Below, piece after piece: positions 18,425 to 63,789 of a DNA stretch of 64,000 nt (within the stretch, counting starts at the first letter, position 1; every line of letters starts with the position of its first letter). The DNA is from Candidatus Moraniibacteriota bacterium (GTDB lineage: Bacteria > Patescibacteriota > Minisyncoccia > Moranbacterales > GCA-2747515): contig CP175956.1 of NCBI GenBank assembly GCA_046116545.1, forward strand, positions 513,734 to 577,733. The letters run 5' to 3'. The notes under the pieces were generated by a model. The model was not told where the DNA came from. It saw only the letters and a list, made by a program, of their open reading frames with translations, and made no database searches. The position numbers and the translations under genes were made by a program.

Positions 18425-21384
18425 TTACATAAGTCAAATTTTTGTGAAGTGGGTGTTGTAAAAAGATAGGGCTTTTCACATGGTTGGGTTGGTAAATCTA
18501 TTTGTGTAGGCGTATAAGAATATGCCAAGACTTGATTTAATTTCAATGTTTCAGAGAAAGATTGGGCTATTAGAATAGTTTTATGCAAAAGAGAGTTTAT
18601 ATTTTGCAGAAGTGTTACAAACAAGTTTGAATTTGTCTGTACAATATCTCGTGAAGTATTGTTGGAAGAATTGTAAACAGCATTTATGGCGACTTTATTT
18701 TCCAAAATTTGTTGAGAAAACATTTTTTCATTTTTAATTGCTTGAGAAATAATTTGTTGAGTTTGATGTTGTTTTTCTAAATTAACTGGAATGGTCCATG
18801 TCCAGATACCATCAATTTTTTCAAATGATGAATTGTCTTGTATAGATATGTCTTTATGACCATATTTTTGTTTATCGGCAACGGATCCATTTGGACGACG
18901 AATTTCTATAACACCTGTTTTGTTAGGGAGACTGATAGCTGTATATTTTTTGGTTATTTTTTTAGTTTTTCCAGGCTTTAATATTAATTTGTCATAAATT
19001 GGATGATTCACTAAAGTTTTTTCTTTTACTCCTGTGGCGATGCTCCAATTTTGGAGATTAATTTTTTCTTTACTTTCATTTTTTATAATAATATATTCAA
19101 CACCACTATCTTTTCCGCTAGGATTTGGAACTATTTTTGTAATTTCAATTTTGTGTTTGGGGTATTTTTTGACGGTAACAGTGAATTTTTTTATTATTTC
19201 TTCACTTTTATCTTGAATTCGTAGGTTGCCATGATAAGTACCAGTTTTTGTGTATCTGTGTCGAGTTTTCCATAAATAACTTTTACGACCATCACCAAAG
19301 TCCCAACGAACTTTTAATTTCTCGCTATCTTTGTCAGTAGCTTTTGTTTTAAAATTAGCATAAACATTTTTATAAGAATTTTTATCTATATCAAATTTTG
19401 TAATGGTTGGAAGATTATTAAAAACATTCTTTTTGCTAGGTGTTAAATATTTGCTCCATCGCCAACTTTTTGAATCAGTATTGTAATTGTAAGAAATATC
19501 TTCTCGGGATGATTTATAAGATATTGAGCTTACTATTTTTTCGTTTGGTGCTGTGAGTGAGACGGTTTCATTGCTATTATTTAGTGCAAAAGAAAAATTT
19601 TTCCTGTAAATTGTGAAAAATGATTTTGGTTCAATGTACTGTTTAGTTGGAAATGTGTAGGTGCCAGTCTTGGAAGAATCTTTTAGCATCCAATTTTTAA
19701 GGTTAATTTTAATGTTGTTTGGATTATAAATTTCTATAAATTCATCAGTTTTTTCAACACCACTTGGATTTGGAAGTATCTCATTTAATAATAATTTAGG
19801 ATATTTTATAGTGCGTGGATCAATTGCATTTTTTGTACCAGGAGTTGGTTCTGCATTATACCAATATTCAGCATAATTTATAGACTTGCCTTTTTGAGAA
19901 TCATTGTATTTGATTTGTGAAGTAATGGAACAGTTAGGTGCAATGAGTGAAATATTATCTCCAGAATTATTTAGAGTGAACCTGAAATGGTCTTTTGTAA
20001 GTTTGATATAAAGTAAGGTTGTGTCTGGGTTTTTGTTTTCTAATGTTCCAGAAATTGTTGAGGAATCTGTTAATTTCCAACCATCTAAAGATACTTTGTC
20101 AGGATTGTAAAGTTCAATAAATTCTTCTGTTTCTGTGCAATGGGGAGTATCTTTTTTGCAAGGATTAGGATAAATTTCATTTATACGAACAGTACTAGAT
20201 AAATTTGTAGGCAAATAATCACCAGGAAAAGGACATTTGTTTATATGAAAATCAGCTTTATTGTTGTCAGTGTCAATATATTTACCATCTTTTTTATTTC
20301 GCTCAATACTTTCATTTTTGTTTGGACTTTGAGTTGATGTTTCTTCATATAAACAAGTATTTCCGAAGCCAACTTTATCAATGATATTGTCGTTATCATC
20401 GTATAAAATAATCGTTGAATCATTAGTTATGGTAGCACTTTGACTAGAGAATGTAATACTATTAGTCCAAGCAGGCTTAGGATTATCCTTATGTGTGATT
20501 ATGAGATATTTGTGAGCTTCGATCACGCCAGTAAAAGCGCGTGAAGATATAAGATTTTTATCTTTTTTTATTTTATCACACTTATTTTTATCTGTTGTTC
20601 TAGTTATATTTCTTTTCAAACTATAACCATTGAGAATGATATTTTTATCAGTTGTATTATATAATTCTATGTATTCCTCATGATGTTTTGAGTTGGAGGC
20701 GGAAGTATCCAATAATATTTCAGTAATGAGGATAGTTTTTTCTATAATTGGAATATCTTCTAGTGGAATCTCAGATTTATTTTTTGTAAGAGGTTTTGTG
20801 ATAGTTTGTATAGTTTCTTTACTTGTACTTGTAGGTTCAAAATTTATGTCTGTATCACTAGCATCTTGTTTCATTGGAGGAGTTTCAGTATATGCCTCGA
20901 TAGAGTGCTCTGTAGAGATATCTTTTTGTTTAGGCAGGCTTTCTTTTGAAATAGATTCATTTTCAATAGTCTTTTCTTTTTCTTGTGATGTAGTAGATTC
21001 ATTTTGAGATGTGGAAATAGAGTCACAATCCGATTCTACTGTCTTTGTTTCAGATTTATCAGCAGTAATTTTTGTGGATTTGGAGGGTTTTTCATCTTTT
21101 GTAATCGATTTTTTATCTGTATCTTTTTTTGTAGTGGACAGACATGTCTGTCCACTACAGTTATCAACATCTTCTATGTCAGAAGTAGTTATGTCAGATT
21201 TGGATTTCTCACTATTTTTGGTAGAAATAGGCTTTGCATCAGTGGAGTTAGTGGTAGTCTCATCAAGAGAAAAAACACTATGTGAAAACAAAGAAAAAAG
21301 ACAAAATAATAATAAAATACCTTTAAGAAGTGTAGGGGATAATATGGTAAAAACTTTTTTCATACAAAAATAAGTTAGCAACAA
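18421..21384 (-). CDS. Large secreted surface protein with four lamin-tail-domain (LTD) repeats, a PKD domain and a Ser/Thr-rich low-complexity linker
   Basis: 987 aa. Signal peptide, then a long S/T/K/D/E-rich region. Repeated ...NEI(L/Y)PNP...(E/D)(F/Y)IE(I/L)YN(P/T)... (LTD) occurs four times. WDFGDGRKS...GTYHGNLRIQD is PKD-like. Confidence 0.7.
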   Translation of the reverse strand: MLLTYFCMKKVFTILSPTLLKGILLLFCLFSLFSHSVFSLDETTTNSTDAKPISTKNSEKSKSDITTSDIEDVDNCSGQTCLSTTKKDTDKKSITKDEKPSKSTKITADKSETKTVESDCDSISTSQNESTTSQEKEKTIENESISKESLPKQKDISTEHSIEAYTETPPMKQDASDTDINFEPTSTSKETIQTITKPLTKNKSEIPLEDIPIIEKTILITEILLDTSASNSKHHEEYIELYNTTDKNIILNGYSLKRNITRTTDKNKCDKIKKDKNLISSRAFTGVIEAHKYLIITHKDNPKPAWTNSITFSSQSATITNDSTIILYDDNDNIIDKVGFGNTCLYEETSTQSPNKNESIERNKKDGKYIDTDNNKADFHINKCPFPGDYLPTNLSSTVRINEIYPNPCKKDTPHCTETEEFIELYNPDKVSLDGWKLTDSSTISGTLENKNPDTTLLYIKLTKDHFRFTLNNSGDNISLIAPNCSITSQIKYNDSQKGKSINYAEYWYNAEPTPGTKNAIDPRTIKYPKLLLNEILPNPSGVEKTDEFIEIYNPNNIKINLKNWMLKDSSKTGTYTFPTKQYIEPKSFFTIYRKNFSFALNNSNETVSLTAPNEKIVSSISYKSSREDISYNYNTDSKSWRWSKYLTPSKKNVFNNLPTITKFDIDKNSYKNVYANFKTKATDKDSEKLKVRWDFGDGRKSYLWKTRHRYTKTGTYHGNLRIQDKSEEIIKKFTVTVKKYPKHKIEITKIVPNPSGKDSGVEYIIIKNESKEKINLQNWSIATGVKEKTLVNHPIYDKLILKPGKTKKITKKYTAISLPNKTGVIEIRRPNGSVADKQKYGHKDISIQDNSSFEKIDGIWTWTIPVNLEKQHQTQQIISQAIKNEKMFSQQILENKVAINAVYNSSNNTSRDIVQTNSNLFVTLLQNINSLLHKTILIAQSFSETLKLNQVLAYSYTPTQIDLPTQPCEKPYLFTTPTSQKFDLCK

Positions 21385-23711: not shown

Positions 23712-26700
23712 TTATAGCGTCGTAACTCGCTTTACTTCTTCTAGTGTTGTTATGCCTTCGAGTGCTTTGAGAATTGCATCTTGTTCCATTGTGAGCATTC
23801 CATTTTCGACGGCTTTTTTCTTGATGTCTGGTGCTAATGATCCGTGAGCTATCATTTCTCGTAAATCATCATCCATTATAAATATTTCACTAATAACTGT
23901 TCTTCCTTTATAGCCAATTCCATTGCACTCCTCACATTTTCCAGGAGTATATAATTTGTCTTGTTGTGGTTGTTCTATTGTTACTTTTGGAGAAATACTT
24001 TCTAAAACGTTTGTAATTATTGATTTGTCAGTTTCAGATATAGGGGTTTCTATTTTACAACTACATAGTACACGGACAAGTCGTTGCGCGATAAACGCAT
24101 TTGTTGCGGTTGTGAGATCATCAGTGCTAACGCCTAGATTTATAAGTCTTTGAATTGCGCCGACAGCATCATTTGTATGTAGTGAAGATATAAGTAGATG
24201 TCCTGTAAGAGCCGCATTAATAGCAGTTGTGGCAGTTTCATCATCACGAATCTCACCAACTAACAAGATGTCAGGATCTTGACGTAATAGAGCTCGGAGA
24301 GCATTGCCAAATGTATAACCAGCTTCTTTGTCTATCTGCGTTTGCAATATGCCATCCAGTTGATATTCAATTGGATTTTCAATTGTAATAATTTTTATAT
24401 CGGGACTACTTATTTCACTTAGCACACTATAAAGAGTAGTTGTTTTACCAGAGCCAGTTGGTCCAGTATTCAACACTACACCATAAGGTTTTGTGACTTG
24501 AGACATTATTCTGTCTAGATTATATTTACGAATTCCTATTGAATGAATATCAAGATTAACGTTATCTCTATTTAACAGTCTAAGTACAATTGTTTCACCA
24601 TAACCTCCAACAATAATTGAAACACGAACATCAACATTTAATTCTGTTTCATCTTCTTTTTCATAATTAATACGAAAACGACTGTCAGAGACACCTTGAC
24701 GTATTGTTGTTGGGATATCACTTATGATTTTTACTTTACTTAATAACAGTGGGTAGCTCATAAGAGGTATTTTGGTGATTGATTGAAGTACTCCATCAAC
24801 ACGCATTCTGATATCAACATATTCTTCTTGAGGTTCTATGTGAATATCACTAGATTTAAGAATTGCTCCATAAGACAGTATTGTAGGAAGCATATCTTTG
24901 TCCTCAGTATCATTGATTGTTTTATTCATCTCATCAAAGTTGCCAGCATTTTCTTCAGCTAGTTTTTGTAGGGAGTATTTAACGAAAATACCACGAGATA
25001 GTGACTGAGACATTAGGTCATCATATAATGATTCGATTAATTCACCTTCGGTTGTAACTCGCATAACCTCTTCAATCGTAGTAACTCCTTCAAGTGCTTT
25101 TAGAACACCATCTTGCGTCATTGTTACGAAGCCTTCTTCGATAGCTTCTTTCATCATGTCGGTTTCACTGGCTAAGTCTAAAATAAGTTGTTCAATTTTA
25201 TTAGACATTGTTAGTATTTCAAAAATACCTATACGTCCTTTATATCCAGTTCCATGACATTTATCACAGCCAATAGCACGATAAATCTCCTTTATTTCTT
25301 TTGGAACAGTTAGCTTTGCCTTTGGAGAAATTAGTGAAATCATTTTCATGAAAGTGTTTTTTGTTTCTTGGGCTGGCTCATAAGATTCTTTGCAGTGTTC
25401 ACATAGAGTTCGTACAAGTCGTTGGGCCATGAAAATATTTGTTGCAGAAGGAATGAGCGTAGGCTTAACACCTAACTCCATCAATCTAGGGACAGTTGCA
25501 ATGGCATTATTTGTATGAAGTGTTGAAAGTACAAGATGTCCAGTTAGGGCAGCATTGATAGCCACATCAGCAGTTTCATCATCACGAATCTCACCAACTA
25601 ATACAACATCCGGATCTTGACGCACAACAGCGCGTAATCCCTTGGAAAATGTATAACCACGATCCTTTGCTACTTGAGTCTGTGATATTCCATCTAGTTG
25701 ATATTCAATAGGGTCTTCAATTGTAATAATTTTTGTTTCTGGAGTTTTAATATGATTTATTAGTGTGTATAGGGTTGTTGTCTTACCAGAACCAGTTGGT
25801 CCAGTTGTGAGTAGCATTCCAGCATTCTTAGCAATATTTTTTTGAATATCTTCAAATGCTTTCCCCTTTAATCCGAGGCTATTAATATCAACGGTAACAC
25901 TATCACTTCGCAAAAGTCGCATCACGAGACCTTCAAATTGTTTCCCAGGAATGGTAGATACACGAACATCAACACGTGTTTCAGGATTTAGCATAAATTC
26001 AAAATGTCCATCTTGTGCAAGATCACGTACATTTATTTTCATTTTACTCATTAACTTGATACGGTTGATGAGTAATTGATAGACATGTTCAGGTATCTCA
26101 ACAATTTTTTGTAAGACACCGTCGATACGATAACGTATGCGAACTGTTTCTCTCTGAGGCTCTATGTGAACATCACTAGCTCCAAGCTTTAATGCACCAG
26201 AAAATAGAATATTTAAAATTTCAGTAGTTGGTAAGGCATCAGCATTATCTTTTAGTTTTAATAATTTTCCAAGACTATCTTCAAAGGCTTCTAAATCCTC
26301 TCCTTCAAGAGTTAGTCGCATGGTATCAATGGAGTCTATAAAATACGCAGTTTTATATTGTCGCAATAATTTATCTTTAGAGGCTTCTGATATTACAAAT
26401 AATTCAGTTTGCCAGCCCTGCCGTGTTTCAAAGTCAGTTATAAAATCTTGCAATGTAGTGCTTTCAGGTGTAGAAGTTGCTAATTTTAACATTTTTCCAA
26501 TACGATGAAATACAAAAATATTATATTTTTTTGCATCATCTTCTGAAATTATAGACACATCTTCGTTGGCAACAGGTATAATATTTAAATCAATATAAGG
26601 AAGCTCAGCTTTTTTTGCTTTTCGTACAGCAAAATCTTCTTCACCTTTAGATTTGAGTTGTTTTAGTGTGCGATCAGTTTCTTTTGCATGCAAAGCATCA

Positions 26701-26735
26701 GTATTTCCTTTGTGTTGTTTTATTTTTATAACCAT
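23712..26735 (-). CDS. Tandem-duplicated type II secretion / type IV pilus assembly ATPase (two complete GspE/PilB modules in one polypeptide)
   Basis: 1007 aa. Two Walker A boxes (TTGPTGSGKTTTLYTL and NTGPTGSGKTTTLYSV). Two Walker B/Asp boxes (VLVGEIRDDETA and LLVGEIRDDETA). Two His boxes (LSTLHTN and ISSLHTN). Two tetracysteine clusters (CEHC...CDKC and CSCK...CEEC). Each module is preceded by a GspE N2-like domain. Confidence 0.8.
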   Translation of the reverse strand: MVIKIKQHKGNTDALHAKETDRTLKQLKSKGEEDFAVRKAKKAELPYIDLNIIPVANEDVSIISEDDAKKYNIFVFHRIGKMLKLATSTPESTTLQDFITDFETRQGWQTELFVISEASKDKLLRQYKTAYFIDSIDTMRLTLEGEDLEAFEDSLGKLLKLKDNADALPTTEILNILFSGALKLGASDVHIEPQRETVRIRYRIDGVLQKIVEIPEHVYQLLINRIKLMSKMKINVRDLAQDGHFEFMLNPETRVDVRVSTIPGKQFEGLVMRLLRSDSVTVDINSLGLKGKAFEDIQKNIAKNAGMLLTTGPTGSGKTTTLYTLINHIKTPETKIITIEDPIEYQLDGISQTQVAKDRGYTFSKGLRAVVRQDPDVVLVGEIRDDETADVAINAALTGHLVLSTLHTNNAIATVPRLMELGVKPTLIPSATNIFMAQRLVRTLCEHCKESYEPAQETKNTFMKMISLISPKAKLTVPKEIKEIYRAIGCDKCHGTGYKGRIGIFEILTMSNKIEQLILDLASETDMMKEAIEEGFVTMTQDGVLKALEGVTTIEEVMRVTTEGELIESLYDDLMSQSLSRGIFVKYSLQKLAEENAGNFDEMNKTINDTEDKDMLPTILSYGAILKSSDIHIEPQEEYVDIRMRVDGVLQSITKIPLMSYPLLLSKVKIISDIPTTIRQGVSDSRFRINYEKEDETELNVDVRVSIIVGGYGETIVLRLLNRDNVNLDIHSIGIRKYNLDRIMSQVTKPYGVVLNTGPTGSGKTTTLYSVLSEISSPDIKIITIENPIEYQLDGILQTQIDKEAGYTFGNALRALLRQDPDILLVGEIRDDETATTAINAALTGHLLISSLHTNDAVGAIQRLINLGVSTDDLTTATNAFIAQRLVRVLCSCKIETPISETDKSIITNVLESISPKVTIEQPQQDKLYTPGKCEECNGIGYKGRTVISEIFIMDDDLREMIAHGSLAPDIKKKAVENGMLTMEQDAILKALEGITTLEEVKRVTTL

Positions 26736-29043: not shown

Positions 29044-29505
29044 ATGAAAAATGCAACAACAGGCACAATAGAACAAACATATGAATTAGCTAGTGATTTT
29101 GTGAAAGAAATGGTTAATGGTGGTTTTTTAGTGTGTTTAGATGGTGATTTAGGTGCAGGTAAAACTACATTTACACAAGGTATTTTAAAAGAATTTGAAG
29201 CTCAGGGACCGTATACATCACCGACATTCAATATTATCAAAGAATATGATGTTAATAAATATGGTATTGAAAAAATTTATCACATAGATGCGTATAGAAT
29301 AGGTAGTGATGATATGGAACTCATAGGTTGGAGTGATATCATAGAAAATGATAAAGCACTTATTGTCATAGAGTGGCCAGAAAATGTCAGTGAAATATTG
29401 CCACAAAATAAATTCGTGATATCATGTGAATGGGTAAGTGAAAATGAAAGAAAATATAATTTTAACAGTGTCATTGCGAGGAGGCACAACGAAGCAATCT
29501 CGTAA
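29044..29505 (+). CDS. tsaE: tRNA threonylcarbamoyladenosine biosynthesis ATPase TsaE
   Basis: 153 aa. DGDLGAGKTTFTQGIL P-loop, canonical TsaE. The last 12 codons are encoded by a dispersed repeat. Confidence 0.8.
   Translation: MKNATTGTIEQTYELASDFVKEMVNGGFLVCLDGDLGAGKTTFTQGILKEFEAQGPYTSPTFNIIKEYDVNKYGIEKIYHIDAYRIGSDDMELIGWSDIIENDKALIVIEWPENVSEILPQNKFVISCEWVSENERKYNFNSVIARRHNEAIS
29469..29505. repeat. Dispersed ~37-nt repeat, family B (copy 1, single arm, inside the 3' end of tsaE)
   Basis: tgtcattgcgaggaggcacaacgaagcaatctcgtaa is near-identical to tgtctttgcgaggaggtacgacgaagcaatcttaaaa at 51017-51053. Confidence 0.6.
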
Positions 29506-30306: not shown

Positions 30307-30333
30307 ATGTTGTACAAAATATGAGAATTTTGT

Positions 30334-30368
30334 AGTGGACGGTCATGACCGTCCACTATTTTTGATTT
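30334..30368 (+). terminator. Rho-independent terminator
   Basis: agtggacggtcatgaccgtccact + atttttgatttt. Confidence 0.7.
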
Positions 30369-32333: not shown

Positions 32334-32535
32334 TATTTATAGAAAATGTAGTCTTGATAATAAAGTATAAAGGGATAAGGTGAAATAGATGATAAGGCAA
32401 TGTTTAACCTTGGGACATTCAAAGGTTGGACCTTTTTTGCATACTGGGAGCAATGATACAAAAGCCCCCCATTCCTTTTAAAAGAGGAGGTTTTGGTAGT
32501 GGTAAGCAATATCAAAATTATTGAAGAATGTGGTT

Positions 32536-32570
32536 TAAACCCCCTCTGTCCTTCGGACATATCCCCCTTA
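32536..32570. repeat. Dispersed ~35-nt repeat, family A with UUCG-type hairpin (copy 1, intergenic)
   Basis: aaaccccctctgtccttcggacatatcccccttaa, compared with aaaccccctctgttcttcggacatctccccctcaa at 48994-49028. Contains the gtcc-ttcg-ggac tetraloop hairpin. Confidence 0.6.
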
Positions 32571-32765
32571 AAAAGGTGAGATGTTTATGGTTAATCTTTT
32601 ATGAAATAGCAATTAGATTACTAAACTTAGCTATCTAGTTGATATTTTTTGCGTAGATTGAGTAAGGGTTGTATTATTGTAGAGATAGGTTTTGTGTCTG
32701 TCCTTTAAGATGAAACATAAGACACCCACAAGGAGTGTCACTACAATTATTTATAAACAATTTTT

Positions 32766-37461: not shown

Positions 37462-37483
37462 ATCAATTGTGATTTTTGCATGA

Positions 37484-37523
37484 AAAAGGTCCAACCTAAG
37501 GTTAACCCTAGGTTGGACCTTTT
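37484..37523 (+). terminator. Rho-independent terminator
   Basis: aaaaggtccaacctaaggttaaccctaggttggacctttt. Confidence 0.7.
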
Positions 37524-43418: not shown

Positions 43419-43702
43419 ATTTGTTAGTTGTTTTAAAGAAAGAGTAAAAAGCATGACAAGAGAGATCTACATTATTTCATTGATGAGTTTTTTGCAATCT
43501 TATGTAAAATGTTAGGATACCATTTCTAACTATTACTTAGTGTAGTGGCGCGGTCTTGTACCCGCCATGTGTATATAATGCGAGGACAGCCACAAGGGCA
43601 TGTCCCTACAAGTGAATCATTGAGTAAGAGTTTATTGAAAAAGGTATTATTATTTATTATTTTTTTTGATAATTGTTTGAGTACTTATTAAGATACCTTA
43701 AT

Positions 43703-48527: not shown

Positions 48528-49360
48528 TAGACTCACACGCACATGTGCATGATAAAAAATTTGATGAAGATCGTGAAGCTGTAATTCAACGGTCTTTTGA
48601 TGATGGGGTGGAAAAAATTATTACTGTTGGCACAAATGAAAAGACATCTTTTGAGGCGATTGAACTTGCCCAGAAGTATGAAAATATTTATGCAACAATT
48701 GGGTTACATCCGTTGCACTTATTTGAGGCTAGTAATTGTGATCCTGAAGAGCAATTTGTAGAGGATTTTGATTATGATAAGTATTTGCAATTGGCAAAAA
48801 ATGAAAATGTTGTAGCTATTGGAGAAGTTGGGTTGGATTATCATCATTTTGGAGAAGGTGATGATGTGGAAACTATTAAAAAAGAACAACGGAGAGTTTT
48901 TATTGAGTTTATTAATATTTGTAAAGAGGTGAAAAAGCCTATTGTTGTGCATTGTTGGGATGGTTATGGTGAGTTGTTGGAGATTTTAGCACAAAACCCC
49001 CTCTGTTCTTCGGACATCTCCCCCTCAAGGAAGGGGAGAGGATATGGTGTAATTCATAGTTATATTGGTAGTTGGAAGAATGCGGAGAAATTTATTGAAT
49101 TGGGTTATAAGATTGGATTAAATGGAATTGCAACTTATGGTGAGTCATATGATAAGCTTATTAGAAATATAGATTTGAAGGATTTACTTATTGAAACAGA
49201 TGCTCCATATTTGCCACCACGACCCTTACTACGAGAAAATAGATGTGAGCCAAAGGATGTTAGATTAGTGGCAGAGAAAATTGCACAAGTAAAGGAAATT
49301 AATGTGGGAGAAGTCATCAAACAAATTACAAAAAATACTGAAGAATTATTTAAAATATAA
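48518..49360 (+). CDS. tatD: TatD-family metal-dependent DNase, with an in-frame repeat-derived insertion
   Basis: 280 aa. IDSHAHVH...(TatD motif)...GEVGLDY...; the segment NPLCSSDISPSRKGRGY is encoded by a repeat family A copy. Confidence 0.8.
   Translation: MQIIDSHAHVHDKKFDEDREAVIQRSFDDGVEKIITVGTNEKTSFEAIELAQKYENIYATIGLHPLHLFEASNCDPEEQFVEDFDYDKYLQLAKNENVVAIGEVGLDYHHFGEGDDVETIKKEQRRVFIEFINICKEVKKPIVVHCWDGYGELLEILAQNPLCSSDISPSRKGRGYGVIHSYIGSWKNAEKFIELGYKIGLNGIATYGESYDKLIRNIDLKDLLIETDAPYLPPRPLLRENRCEPKDVRLVAEKIAQVKEINVGEVIKQITKNTEELFKI
48994..49028. repeat. Dispersed ~35-nt repeat, family A (copy 2, in-frame inside tatD)
   Basis: aaaccccctctgttcttcggacatctccccctcaa. 32/35 identical to 32536-32570. 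Followed by the ggaaggggagag inverted partner of ctcccc. Confidence 0.6.
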
Positions 49361-50389: not shown

Positions 50390-51010
50390 ATGGCAATGCA
50401 ATGTGAAGATGAAATGGTGTTTATGGAATCATGTTTCAACAATCATCCAGTGATTGGAGAAAAAGTTATTGATAGAGAGTTTGAAATTTTTCAAGGAAAA
50501 ACTTTCAAAAAAACTAAACTGTCAACTTTGTACAAAAATAAGTGGTTGGTATTATTTTTCTATCCAGCAGACTTTACTTTTATTTGTCCTACAGAATTGG
50601 AAGATCTTGCAGCGGCTTATACAAAATTGAAAAAACTTGGTGTAGAAGTTGTGACTGTATCAACTGATACAGTATTTACTCATAAAGCATGGCATGATTC
50701 TTCAGAAGCTATTGGAAAAGTAAAATACCCAATGGCAGCAGATCCAACAGGACAACTATGTCGTGATTTTGGAGTTATGATTGAAGATGAGGGATTAGCA
50801 CTTCGTGGTACATTTATTATCAATCCAAAAGGAGAATTGAAAGCAATGGAAGTACATGATAATAGTATTGGACGAGATGTTGATGAATTGATTAGAAAAA
50901 TTCAAGCAGCGCAATTTGTAGAAAAAAATAAAGGACAAGTTTGTCCTGCTAAATGGACTCCAGGAGCAAAGACTTTGAAACCTGGTATAAACTTGGTAGG
51001 AAAAATATAA
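50390..51010 (+). CDS. Typical 2-Cys peroxiredoxin (AhpC/Prx1 family)
   Basis: FTFICPTEL peroxidatic Cys motif and C-terminal GQVCPAKW resolving Cys. Confidence 0.85.
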   Translation: MAMQCEDEMVFMESCFNNHPVIGEKVIDREFEIFQGKTFKKTKLSTLYKNKWLVLFFYPADFTFICPTELEDLAAAYTKLKKLGVEVVTVSTDTVFTHKAWHDSSEAIGKVKYPMAADPTGQLCRDFGVMIEDEGLALRGTFIINPKGELKAMEVHDNSIGRDVDELIRKIQAAQFVEKNKGQVCPAKWTPGAKTLKPGINLVGKI

Positions 51011-51016
51011 TTTTAG

Positions 51017-51110
51017 TGTCTTTGCGAGGAGGTACGACGAAGCAATCTTAAAAAGTATTTATAAATACTACTGAGATTGCCACGTCGCTAAATGCTTCTC
51101 GCAATGACAT
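51017..51110. repeat. Repeat family B, palindromic copy (two inverted arms around an AT palindrome)
   Basis: Left arm tgtctttgcgaggaggtacgacgaagcaatc. Right arm gattgccacgtcgctaaatgcttctcgcaatgaca is its imperfect reverse complement. Central agtatttataaatact. Confidence 0.55.
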
Positions 51111-51186
51111 GTTTTATATACAAATAGGGGGCATCTGTTTAATTTACAGACAGTTGCCTCTTCTTTTGACCCTTAAAACATAAAAT

Positions 51187-62004: not shown

Positions 62005-62784
62005 TTATTCTTGAAATAATATATCTAGATATTCCCAAAATTTAACACCACCACCAATTTCACCTATACATTCAGCAGCTTCTGATTTTGTACGTGCATT
62101 GGGATGAAGTCCGTCAATTGGGAAGTGACGAAATACCCATTTTACATCATCCTTATAATCTCCCATTAAATTCAGTGTAGATGTATGAAATTTCTTACAA
62201 AAAGGACAGTCTACATCAGAGTATTCTATTACAGTTATACGTGCATTCTCACCGCCTTTAATCCAGTCATCAGCAGTTACAGTGTCAATTTCTCTGTCAT
62301 TACTAATATCTTTTGCTTGTGGATCATTGCCAGCTAGTAAGTCATCAAAAAACTCTCTGATGCCTTTTTCTGTTTGTGCACCTGGTATTTCATAGATAGC
62401 ATCATCAATCAATACAAAACTATGAGGAGTTCCTTGTACACCAGCTTTTTTACCACTATCAATATCAGATTGTACAGCATCAGCATATCTTTTTTCTTCC
62501 ATGCATATATCAAATTCTTCTTTGTTTATATCCATAGAAACCAATGTTGCATCTAATGATAATTTAGGAACTGATTTTTTAGCTACAACTTTAGTTTTTT
62601 GTATAGGCGCTTGTTTTGGATTGAATTTACCAAACGATATCTTATTTGTAATTGTTCCGATTAATAAAAATAAGAGAACTATAGCAAGAGCACACATAGC
62701 ACCAAACCAAAATGAATGCCAATGTGTTCGGTAGCCAGTATCTTTATTTGAGCTTTCTTGAATTTTTTCTTTTTGTTTATCCAT
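62005..62784 (-). CDS. DsbA/BdbD-like thiol:disulfide oxidoreductase, membrane-anchored
   Basis: 259 aa. N-terminal TM. Thioredoxin-fold CPFC active site (DVDCPFCKKFH). Confidence 0.7.
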   Translation of the reverse strand: MDKQKEKIQESSNKDTGYRTHWHSFWFGAMCALAIVLLFLLIGTITNKISFGKFNPKQAPIQKTKVVAKKSVPKLSLDATLVSMDINKEEFDICMEEKRYADAVQSDIDSGKKAGVQGTPHSFVLIDDAIYEIPGAQTEKGIREFFDDLLAGNDPQAKDISNDREIDTVTADDWIKGGENARITVIEYSDVDCPFCKKFHTSTLNLMGDYKDDVKWVFRHFPIDGLHPNARTKSEAAECIGEIGGGVKFWEYLDILFQE

Positions 62785-63084
62785 AAAAATTTTATTAAAT
62801 TAAATGTAATTATATAGTAAGTATTTTTGAGATATTGTGCAAGAGTGAAATAGTAAAGTACTCTATTTGTAACTATTCAGATTTATTTAAGAACTATCGT
62901 TTTTGCGAACAGAAGTCATATTGTTTGTGCCACGTGAAGCAATCTTTGATAGATAATCAATAATCTCAAAGAGATTGCGTCGCTTAACTACATGAAATAT
63001 CTCAGCTACTCGCAAGGACACTTATATTGCAGAAAATTGAAAATTCTTTTATTATGTAAATTATAAAACATAAATTAAAAAGAT

Positions 63085-63789
63085 ATGATTTCACAATATA
63101 CAGTTAATCTAATAGAAAAAAAGGAAATAGCAGAAAATACCTTTCAACTTATACTTACGAAACCAAAAGATTTTTCTTTCAGTCCAGGACAGTTTATGTT
63201 TCTTGATTTCCCCAATCCAGTAAACACTGACGATAATCCAACATTTCGAGCAATGTCTATAGCATCTTCACCATGTGAAGAAAACTTGATGTTTATAATG
63301 AGGGGGAGCGAAAGTGCATTTAAGCAAAATATGGAAGCAATGCAAATAGATGATCCAATCATAGTAAAGGGGCCAATGGGACACATAACACTTCCACAAA
63401 ATATAAATCAACCAATGGCATTTATAGTTGCTGGAGTAGGAATAACACCAGCAAGAGCAATGATAAAGCATGAAGAACATCAAAAAGTAGACAGGCAAGT
63501 AACACTTTTATATGCTAGTAAAACAAAAAATTCAATAGCCTTATTTGACGAATTAAAAAATGTAGAATTAAAAAACTATAATCCTGTATTTACGCTAACT
63601 AGAGAAGAAGGTGAATGGGATGGTGAAACAGGACGTATAAATGAAGAGATGATAAGAAAATATGTTGACGAGATAGAAAAAACAATGTACTATATTGTAG
63701 GTACGAAAGCATTCACTGAATCCATGAAAGAAATATTGGAAAATATGGGGATAGCAAAGGAAAACGTACAATTTGACAATTTTGGATAA
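63085..63789 (+). CDS. Ferredoxin-NADP+ reductase-like FAD/NAD(P)-binding oxidoreductase
   Basis: 234 aa. RAMSIASSP (RxYS FAD motif), GPMGH, FIVAGVGITPARAM (NAD(P) binding). Confidence 0.6.
   Translation: MISQYTVNLIEKKEIAENTFQLILTKPKDFSFSPGQFMFLDFPNPVNTDDNPTFRAMSIASSPCEENLMFIMRGSESAFKQNMEAMQIDDPIIVKGPMGHITLPQNINQPMAFIVAGVGITPARAMIKHEEHQKVDRQVTLLYASKTKNSIALFDELKNVELKNYNPVFTLTREEGEWDGETGRINEEMIRKYVDEIEKTMYYIVGTKAFTESMKEILENMGIAKENVQFDNFG

Follow-up and report, generated by a model that had tools for sequence, protein, structure and literature searches.

Two places in the window, the 64,000-nt stretch of DNA from a Candidatus Moraniibacteriota bacterium analysed here, carry the same short sequence: the end of tsaE and the spacer between a peroxiredoxin gene and nrdA, where it is part of a large palindrome. 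Such an arrangement raises the question of whether the sequence is an RNA signal of the neighbouring genes or a mobile piece of DNA. The explanation that appears probable is a very small non-autonomous REP-type repeat, a new structural family in the CGTC-tagged REP superfamily, inserted and mobile as DNA.

Copies of the Repeat in the Window

The 31-nt consensus TGTCWTTGCGAGGAGGYACRACGAAGCAATC, proposed in an earlier note on this DNA, is real: it has two exact matches in the window, at 29469–29499(+) and 51017–51047(+), and none in 100 dinucleotide shuffles. The two copies are identical at 28 of 31 positions, and their G+C-rich boxes are conspicuous against the AT-rich background of the window (31.9% G+C). 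A less strict search with two boxes (TTGCGAG ... GCAATC) additionally recovers the right arm at 51 kb and a further copy near 63 kb. The units and their parts are as follows.

29469–29501, plus strand: single unit at the tsaE end; TGTC 29469–72, ATTGC 29473–77, GA-G 29478–80, apical GA-G[GCA]C-AA, C-GAA 29490–93, GCAAT 29494–98, tail CTC 29499–29501
51017–51049, plus strand: left unit of the peroxiredoxin–nrdA dimer; TGTC, TTTGC, GA-G, apical GA-G[GTA]C-GA, C-GAA, GCAAT, tail CTT
51048–51074: spacer of this dimer, 27 nt measured between the GCAATC ends, and thus overlapping the tail of the left unit (51048–51049)
51075–51109, minus strand: right unit of this dimer; minus-strand reading TGTCATTGCGAG-AAGCATTTAGCGAC-GTGGCAATC
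62898–62946 (to 62944 without the final TT), plus strand: left unit, degenerate, of another head-to-head dimer; CGTT-TTTGC-GAA...26 nt...GAAGCAATC-TT
62973–63020, minus strand: right unit of this second dimer; TGTC-CTTGC-GAG...GCGAC-GCAATC, differing from the conserved boxes at 2 positions

The palindrome at 51 kb has the right arm (51075–51109) and the AT-palindromic center that had been described for it: a perfect 16-nt palindrome, AGTATTTATAAATACT, lies at 51054–51069 within the 27-nt spacer and forms the tip of the long hairpin. The right arm, in reverse complement, is a unit whose middle part is longer (TGTCATTGCGAGAAGCATTTAGCGACGTGGCAATC); its apical hairpin is GC[ATTTA]GC. The left unit carries a mutation in the first stem position, T for A at 51021 (TTTGC). 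The tsaE copy had been taken for a half-copy of this palindrome; the relation is the reverse, with the tsaE copy being the full basic unit and the palindrome of about 94 nt a head-to-head dimer of two units. As anticipated from its sequence, the region folds strongly: as RNA, 51005–51125 forms one long hairpin of −44.8 kcal/mol (z −8.1), and as DNA it reaches −22.7 kcal/mol (z −5.5), with 0 of 200 shuffles as good in either case.

The degenerate pair at 62.9 kb has a 28-nt spacer, is located between the divergent genes 62005–62784(−) and 63085–63789(+), and folds no better than shuffled sequence. The repeat is confirmed as a dispersed family. Across the five window units, the tag is TGTC in four and CGTT in one, and the tails are CTC, CTT, CTC, CTT, and CTC. 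The units at 29469 and 51017 belong to the longer apical type, their apical stem being a single pair, G[GCA]C and G[GTA]C, respectively.

A weaker third match, suggested at 43585–43610, does not hold, as the region has 4 + 4 mismatches to the two boxes and is missed by a two-box scan allowing at most 3 mismatches in total. The region was rejected as a family member and is instead a minus-strand GTAG-tagged hairpin, belonging to a pair at 43542–43567(+) and 43584–43609(−). Further GTAG-tagged REP-like hairpins of the form GTAGTGGAC...GTCCAC, with perfect 9-bp stems, are found at 21131–21158 and 30332–30355. Since GTAG hairpins coexist with CGTC-type units in the window, the source genome carries both REP superfamilies. 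A generic scan for GTAG or YGTC followed by any 6-bp stem gives no more matches than shuffled sequence, and only the specific families stand out.

The window contains other repeats as well. A 35-nt repeat, AAACCCCCTCTGTYCTTCGGACATMTCCCCCTYAA, with an internal hairpin occurs at 32537–32571 and 48994–49028 (91% identical) and possibly represents a further dispersed family. At 32399–32437 and 37483–37523, related hairpins, AAGGTCCAACCT...AGGTTGGACCTTTT, each precede a T run and look like shared intrinsic terminators. In addition, a 236-nt direct repeat (24232–24467 and 25570–25805, 76% identical) is located inside a 1007-aa ORF, 23712–26735(−), whose orthologue in locus L243 has two T2SSE domain matches, indicating a duplicated domain.

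Architecture of the Unit

The family was defined with the exact scan pattern CATTGCGAG-N5-30-GAAGCAATC, which is present in at least 120 stretches of viral contigs and at least 120 stretches of one-genome-per-species contigs; 445 units in 243 sequences were sampled from the matches listed. The consensus of these 445 units is YGTC - ATTGC - GA - G[variable]C - GAA - GCAAT - C(C/T)(A/C), with a length of 26–50 nt. Conserved flank positions are limited to Y(−5), GTCA, and Y(+1). GTCA was part of the genome search pattern, whereas the viral pattern held only CA; the GT before CA is nearly invariant in viral units even though it lay outside the viral search pattern. A pyrimidine (C or T) occupies position −5 in 94% of single units and in 91% of dimer units and is followed by GTC, outside the stem. 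The stem ATTGC/GCAAT begins with an A-T pair in 361 of 376 units and continues with a T-A pair in 371 of 376. After GCAAT, the tail in dimers is C, then C (69%) or T (30%), then A (60%), and in single units it is C, then T/C, then C/A.

Above the stem, a purine internal loop (GA opposite GAA), present on the tagged strand only, is conserved and is followed by a closing G-C pair. The apical region is under constraint as a hairpin: 245 distinct versions have 2.44 consecutive outer pairs on average against 0.57 (sd 0.05) in shuffled versions. Apical stems are very diverse and compensatory, with loops mainly of 3–4 nt and apical lengths from 3 to more than 40 nt. The commonest apical version, CGNAGC, gives GCGNAGC with the closing G, and the longer type carries a second GA...GA module, GA-GCGNAGC-GA. 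By nearest-neighbor energies, single units are not stable hairpins (z about 0). However, tandem sheared G-A pairs, which nearest-neighbor folding does not model, stabilize internal loops such as GA/GAA, and d(GCGAAGC) is an unusually stable DNA mini-hairpin. The stability of single units would rest on these sheared G-A and GNA-loop effects. The asymmetry between G-T and A-C mismatches, a test for selection at the RNA level, yields 3 versus 5 cases, too few for use.

In terms of organization, 189 of the 445 units are single, 203 belong to head-to-head dimers, in which the GCAATC ends point toward one another, 17 are tail-to-tail, and 36 are in tandem arrays. A head-to-head pair can fold as one long hairpin or cruciform. 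The spacer of such pairs has a median of 23.5 nt (interquartile range 21–27), and 92 of 98 distinct dimers are heterodimers; hence, the spacers of the window dimers (27 and 28 nt) and their unequal arms are typical of the family. Tandem arrays with a period of 30–50 nt and without spacers occur at L049 2696–2818, L020 29–101, L021 5118–5172, and L129 1372–1506, showing local amplification of the unit. Sister families share the frame GTCAT(T/C)-stem...stem-(A/G)ATC; in one of them, GTCATTCTGAGCGCAGCGAAGAATC, the outer stem is altered on both sides (ATTCT/AGAAT) and GAG...GAA is kept.

Distribution in Bacteria and Phages

The repeat is not confined to the source genome but is spread over bacterial phyla and phages. 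Among the matches listed, the hosts comprise more than 12 bacterial phyla and tailed phages. The listed genome matches include many Alphaproteobacteria (Bradyrhizobium, sphingomonads, Rhodospirillales), Gammaproteobacteria, Desulfobacterota, Chloroflexota, Bacteroidota (Pedobacter, Chryseobacterium, Tannerella), Cyanobacteria (Nostoc, Microcoleus), Melainabacteria, Planctomycetota, Zixibacteria, Latescibacterota, Ignavibacteria, Helicobacter rodentium (Campylobacterota), Sporomusa (Bacillota), and Patescibacteria, including a Doudnabacteria genome. With the dimer as query, Novosphingobium, Methylosinus, and Methylobacterium plasmids and a Helicobacter canis prophage are matched as well. On one Novosphingobium megaplasmid, the dimer query matches at 40 places or more, and the 40-kb piece of it that was examined has one strict unit. 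That the boxes should be almost the same in more than 12 phyla is not accounted for by any mechanism known to us.

Portal, major head, and tail-fiber genes identify two of the viral contigs rich in units as true tailed phages; here, the units are situated in the short gaps between structural genes. In the related tailed phages L038, L054, L062, L066, and L042, a unit is located directly 5' of the portal gene, at a median of 46 nt over 12 loci.

Insertion at the End of tsaE

The single unit of the window lies at the 3' end of the following gene.

29044–29505, plus strand: tsaE ORF, 153 aa; Pfam TsaE domain at residues 9–137, unit-encoded residues 143–153

That the repeat encodes the end of TsaE is correct for the last 11 codons, VIARRHNEAIS; 12 residues had been claimed with 11 listed, and the stop codon, TAA at 29503–29505, is not within the unit but one codon (TCG) beyond it. 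Among the 20 closest orthologues, 17 end in ..RKYxFxx or in short unrelated tails, and the end VIARRH(N/D/R)(E/G)AIS is restricted to the window TsaE and two others (76% and 68% identical). The tail is therefore element-encoded, as most orthologues end 11 residues earlier, and the suggestion that the element has remodeled the TsaE C-terminus is upheld by this alignment.

The same conclusion is reached at the DNA level. The site is filled in L244 and L245 and empty in L243 and L246. In two syntenic relatives, the empty site reads TTTAAT TAA TTTTTAAAAT ATG; the filled site is longer by about 50 bases, made up of the unit plus a short stretch rich in A, and its new stop codon comes after TCG. An insertion over the tsaE stop codon thus lengthened the protein by 11 residues. 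The two states are intermixed in a tree built from the TsaE core (P0002 beside P0003/P0004, P0005 beside P0015), so that at least two gains or losses have taken place at this spot. The odd TsaE C-terminus is thereby accounted for, which is of use in annotation: the peptides VIARRH.. and, in other frames, SLRG.. and ..LLAMT are to be expected as spurious extensions or small ORFs wherever the unit inserts.

The Peroxiredoxin–nrdA Spacer

The dimer at 51 kb stands between a peroxiredoxin gene and nrdA, which encodes the large subunit of a class I ribonucleotide reductase with ATP cones. The features of this spacer, in addition to the dimer, are as follows.

50390–51010, plus strand: peroxiredoxin gene (AhpC/TSA family); the dimer begins 7 nt past its stop codon, in the 3' untranslated stretch
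51127–51170, plus strand: conserved hairpin and T-run, separate from the repeat; GGGGGCATCTG...CAGTTGCCTC TTCTTTTGA

The spacer was compared over five informative loci, found in metagenomes through relatives of the peroxiredoxin. It carries the element in the window and in L248 and is empty in L249 and L250. In L248, the left unit of the dimer is decayed, and the loop is different from and shorter than that of the window. At the same spot, L247 has two units of other CGTC-type families (ATTCCCC...GGGGAAT and ...CCGGAAT), which suggests either a preferred insertion spot or the replacement of one element by another. The L247 units form a head-to-head pair at 670–810, TGTCATTCCCC..GGGGAAT and ..CCGGAATGACA, of which the second has a long apical hairpin rich in AT.

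The hairpin and T-run at 51127–51170, starting 18 nt beyond the dimer, are directly 5' of nrdA in all five relatives, with or without the repeat, and show one compensatory change, from G-C to A-U. Judged from the sequence, this structure probably serves either to terminate the peroxiredoxin transcript or as an attenuator in the nrdA leader. As it is kept whether or not the dimer is present, the dimer has been inserted between the peroxiredoxin stop codon and 51127–51170.

These comparisons bear on the reading of 51017–51109 as mainly a cis-acting RNA, namely a terminator, an attenuator of nrdA, or a 3' stabilizer of the peroxiredoxin mRNA, which the earlier note had raised in part and which we consider unlikely. 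The very stable hairpin (−44.8 kcal/mol), its position 7 nt past the peroxiredoxin stop codon, and the TGTTTTAT that follows it are consistent with such a role, and E. coli REPs can shield upstream mRNA against 3' exonucleases. The survey of Di Nocera, De Gregorio and Rocco (2013, BMC Genomics 14:522; PMC3733652) likewise argues that many REPs are transcribed and lie near the 3' ends of ORFs. However, L249 and L250 lack the dimer yet keep the hairpin and T-run beside nrdA, and both the loop and the left arm have diverged in L248. The unit is also found within the tsaE coding region and in the divergent promoter spacer at 62.9 kb, and across the family its orientation is not biased relative to genes (see below). 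A simple terminator scan makes no call at the dimer hairpin and its TGTTTTAT. In the Rfam search of the window, only two tRNAs reach the gathering score and no family matches the repeat, permissive thresholds included; at 50990–51140 there are only microRNA matches at chance level.

The dimer may affect the end of the peroxiredoxin transcript, but regulation is at most a side effect, because the dimer is absent in close relatives, its loop is unconserved, a separate terminator-like hairpin is present, and the unit also occurs in coding sequence and in a divergent spacer. For this window, a candidate regulatory hairpin upstream of nrdA thereby loses its support.

Strand Orientation and Probable Mode of Movement

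With gene orientation taken from crude ORF calls, single units between co-directional genes are antisense in 31 cases and sense in 28. At loci with at least 80% of the coding length on one strand, sense and antisense single units number 61 and 52, respectively (p = 0.45). Adjacent single units in one locus are co-oriented in 25 of 31 pairs (p = 9e-4), the pairs coming mainly from phage contigs. In phage contig L015, all six units are antisense to the portal, capsid, and tail genes, and in L038 and L003 the units are sense. An orientation that is free of gene direction, combined with co-oriented neighbors and an internal loop on the tagged strand, points to a strand-specific process unrelated to transcription. 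These observations favor a mobile element acting at the DNA level, probably as a single strand, rather than an RNA regulator.

Transposition of single strands coupled to the lagging strand is established for IS200/IS605 elements (PMC6006769). By analogy, the closest precedent would be the HUH enzymes of the IS200/IS605 and RAYT type, which transpose single strands at the replication fork. Among 1799 clustered ORFs around units (8-kb loci), no mobilizing enzyme and no recurrent transposase-like family is found; the recurrent neighbors are phage structural proteins, ABC-F proteins, histidine kinases, and short-chain dehydrogenases. No RAYT-like neighbor is seen in the sampled loci, and no RAYT association of the YGTC-tagged unit is known to us.

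As the empty sites in close relatives show, the units are inserted DNA. The filled/empty pattern could be obtained by repeated deletion as well as by insertion, and no target-site duplication is definable from the two comparisons, at the tsaE end and in the peroxiredoxin–nrdA spacer. The description of the element as MITE-like, made from the sequence of the dimer, stands with respect to its miniature, non-autonomous behavior and the filled and empty sites at both loci, but is doubtful in the sense of a classical MITE, as single units insert alone. In the classical form, the dimer would be a deletion derivative of a DDE-type IS with the terminal inverted repeats TGTCATTGCGAG...CTCGCAATGACA, moved by cut-and-paste with target duplication. 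We regard this as highly improbable, although the 5'-TG...CA-3' ends, the inverted arms, the length of 93 nt, the intergenic position, and the filled and empty sites all agree with it. One-ended single units are about as common as dimer units (189 versus 203), and it is a single unit that has inserted alone at tsaE. Furthermore, there is no clear target duplication, no transposase gene with such ends and no parent element occurs among the loci, and the interior of the arm is a constrained hairpin, for which a protein-bound double-stranded terminal repeat has no need.

Comparison with Known REP Systems

REPs have been divided into GTAG-tagged and CGTC-tagged superfamilies (PMC3733652). In that survey, CGTC REPs have an unpaired tag, CGTC or often TGTC (CCTC allowed), stems of 8–9 bp that nearly always start with A-T, loops of 4–5 nt, and a 3-nt tail near CCA. 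Their head-to-head arrangement is predominant and the tail-to-tail arrangement rare, intragenic copies are occasional, there is no dedicated transposase, and they were found in 5 phyla. The typical REP position near the 3' end of an ORF is also that of the peroxiredoxin–nrdA dimer. Among named repeats, Neisseria dRS3 and Rickettsia RPE-6 correspond to CGTC-1, and Rickettsia RPE-4 corresponds to CGTC-4.

Measured against this description, the present units share with CGTC REPs the tag, the stem start of A-T then T-A, the CCA-like tail, and the head-to-head bias (203 versus 17 units). They are also mostly intergenic near ORF ends, with some in-frame copies and no transposase neighbor, and are common in Alphaproteobacteria. 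The stem, however, differs. Where CGTC-1 to -4, as characterized in the survey, have a continuous stem of 8–9 bp, the present units have a stem of 5 bp followed by the GA/GAA internal loop and a free apical hairpin. Their hosts likewise extend beyond the 5 phyla given there and include Patescibacteria, Chloroflexota, Cyanobacteria, Planctomycetota, Desulfobacterota, Zixibacteria, Bacillota, Campylobacterota, and tailed phages. According to the peptides in its supplement, CGTC-2 corresponds to a hairpin of the ATTCCGAA type and CGTC-3 to one of the ATCGCCGGG type, and the peptides expected from the ATTGC-GA...GAA-GCAAT family are absent from the survey's intragenic REP list (PMC3733652). The survey's authors state that classes with bulges may have been missed in their search. 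Because the units do not have the stem and loop by which the survey defines its classes, and because bulged classes were possibly missed in 2013, the family is filed as a new structural family and not under CGTC-1 to -4. It is set apart from these four classes by the text, table, and peptide descriptions given for them (PMC3733652). A text search of the literature with the DNA strings of the unit and its encoded peptides returned nothing relevant.

The dRS3 repeat is a 20-bp ATTCCCNNNNNNNNGGGAAT (PMC1797815). Like dRS3 (ATTCCC-N8-GGGAAT), the present unit has the GTCATT...AATC frame, and dRS3-like units co-occur with it in L133 and L232. Its stem, however, is ATTGC rather than ATTCCC and is interrupted; dRS3 is found in long arrays with RS spacers, whereas the present units are mostly singles or dimers. 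The 20-bp dRS3 unit itself is absent from the window.

The case of dRS3 (CGTC-1 in the survey; PMC3733652), at which filamentous prophages integrate by means of a transposase that the phage encodes (PMC1797815), brings in another reading, namely that the units are recombination or integration target sites kept by a recombinase or transposase and do not copy themselves, as has been proposed for dRS3 and the Nf phages of Neisseria. The different CGTC-type units at one peroxiredoxin–nrdA position in different lineages would fit such target sites, as would the units at gene boundaries in tailed phages, which could aid module exchange. We nevertheless find it quite unlikely, as it leaves the multiplication of the sites and the constraint on the apical hairpin unaccounted for, and there is no recombinase near the units. 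It is compatible with the mobile REP-type repeat preferred here and does not exclude it.

With GTAG REPs and REPINs, the units share the small hairpins, the inverted doublets as the likely replicative form, and the high copy number, and some Pseudomonas REPs have GA...GAA around their palindrome. Unlike the GTAG REP/REPIN–RAYT systems, they carry the tag YGTC; REPIN–RAYT systems are lineage-specific and vertically inherited, whereas the unit is near-identical across phyla. RPE-4 and RPE-6 resemble the unit in their in-frame insertion into protein genes, as at the tsaE end, but have other stem sequences, and RPEs are often gene-internal; the unit at tsaE instead takes the place of the C-terminal end. 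Integron attC sites are similar in architecture only, with a conserved outer stem, an unpaired center, a variable terminal structure, and folded single-stranded DNA. Unlike attC, the much shorter unit has no R/L box consensus (RYYYAAC/GTTRRRY), no cassette context, and no integrase.

Comparison by eye with the hammerhead core, k-turns, SRP RNA domain IV, attC, dif, and CRISPR repeats led to their rejection, as the conserved positions do not correspond.

Proposed Mode of Action and Significance

Under the preferred explanation of a mobile REP-type repeat, the functional form of the unit would be a folded single DNA strand. It would be copied or moved in trans by a structure-specific enzyme encoded away from the repeats, and the mobilization step would probably take place during replication. 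The copies in the window would have no dedicated cellular function, save possible side effects on transcript ends; they are ordinary selfish DNA.

A further-reaching proposal is held only tentatively, as a possibility on the doubtful side: that this is an undescribed modular CGTC-type family in which 20 bases are kept almost unchanged in more than 12 phyla, including tiny AT-rich genomes, and in tailed phages, which would imply a conserved trans-acting factor for the folded single strand. If true, this factor would recognize the tag, the tandem G-A internal loop, and the apical GNA mini-hairpin, and the co-orientation of neighboring units suggests that it acts in replication. Its discovery would explain the spread of CGTC REPs in the absence of a dedicated transposase, for which the 2013 survey had no answer. 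Meanwhile, within a little-studied class of repeats, the family offers a handle for the hunt for such an enzyme, with its searchable signature, modular hairpin, wide range of hosts including phages, and filled and empty sites.
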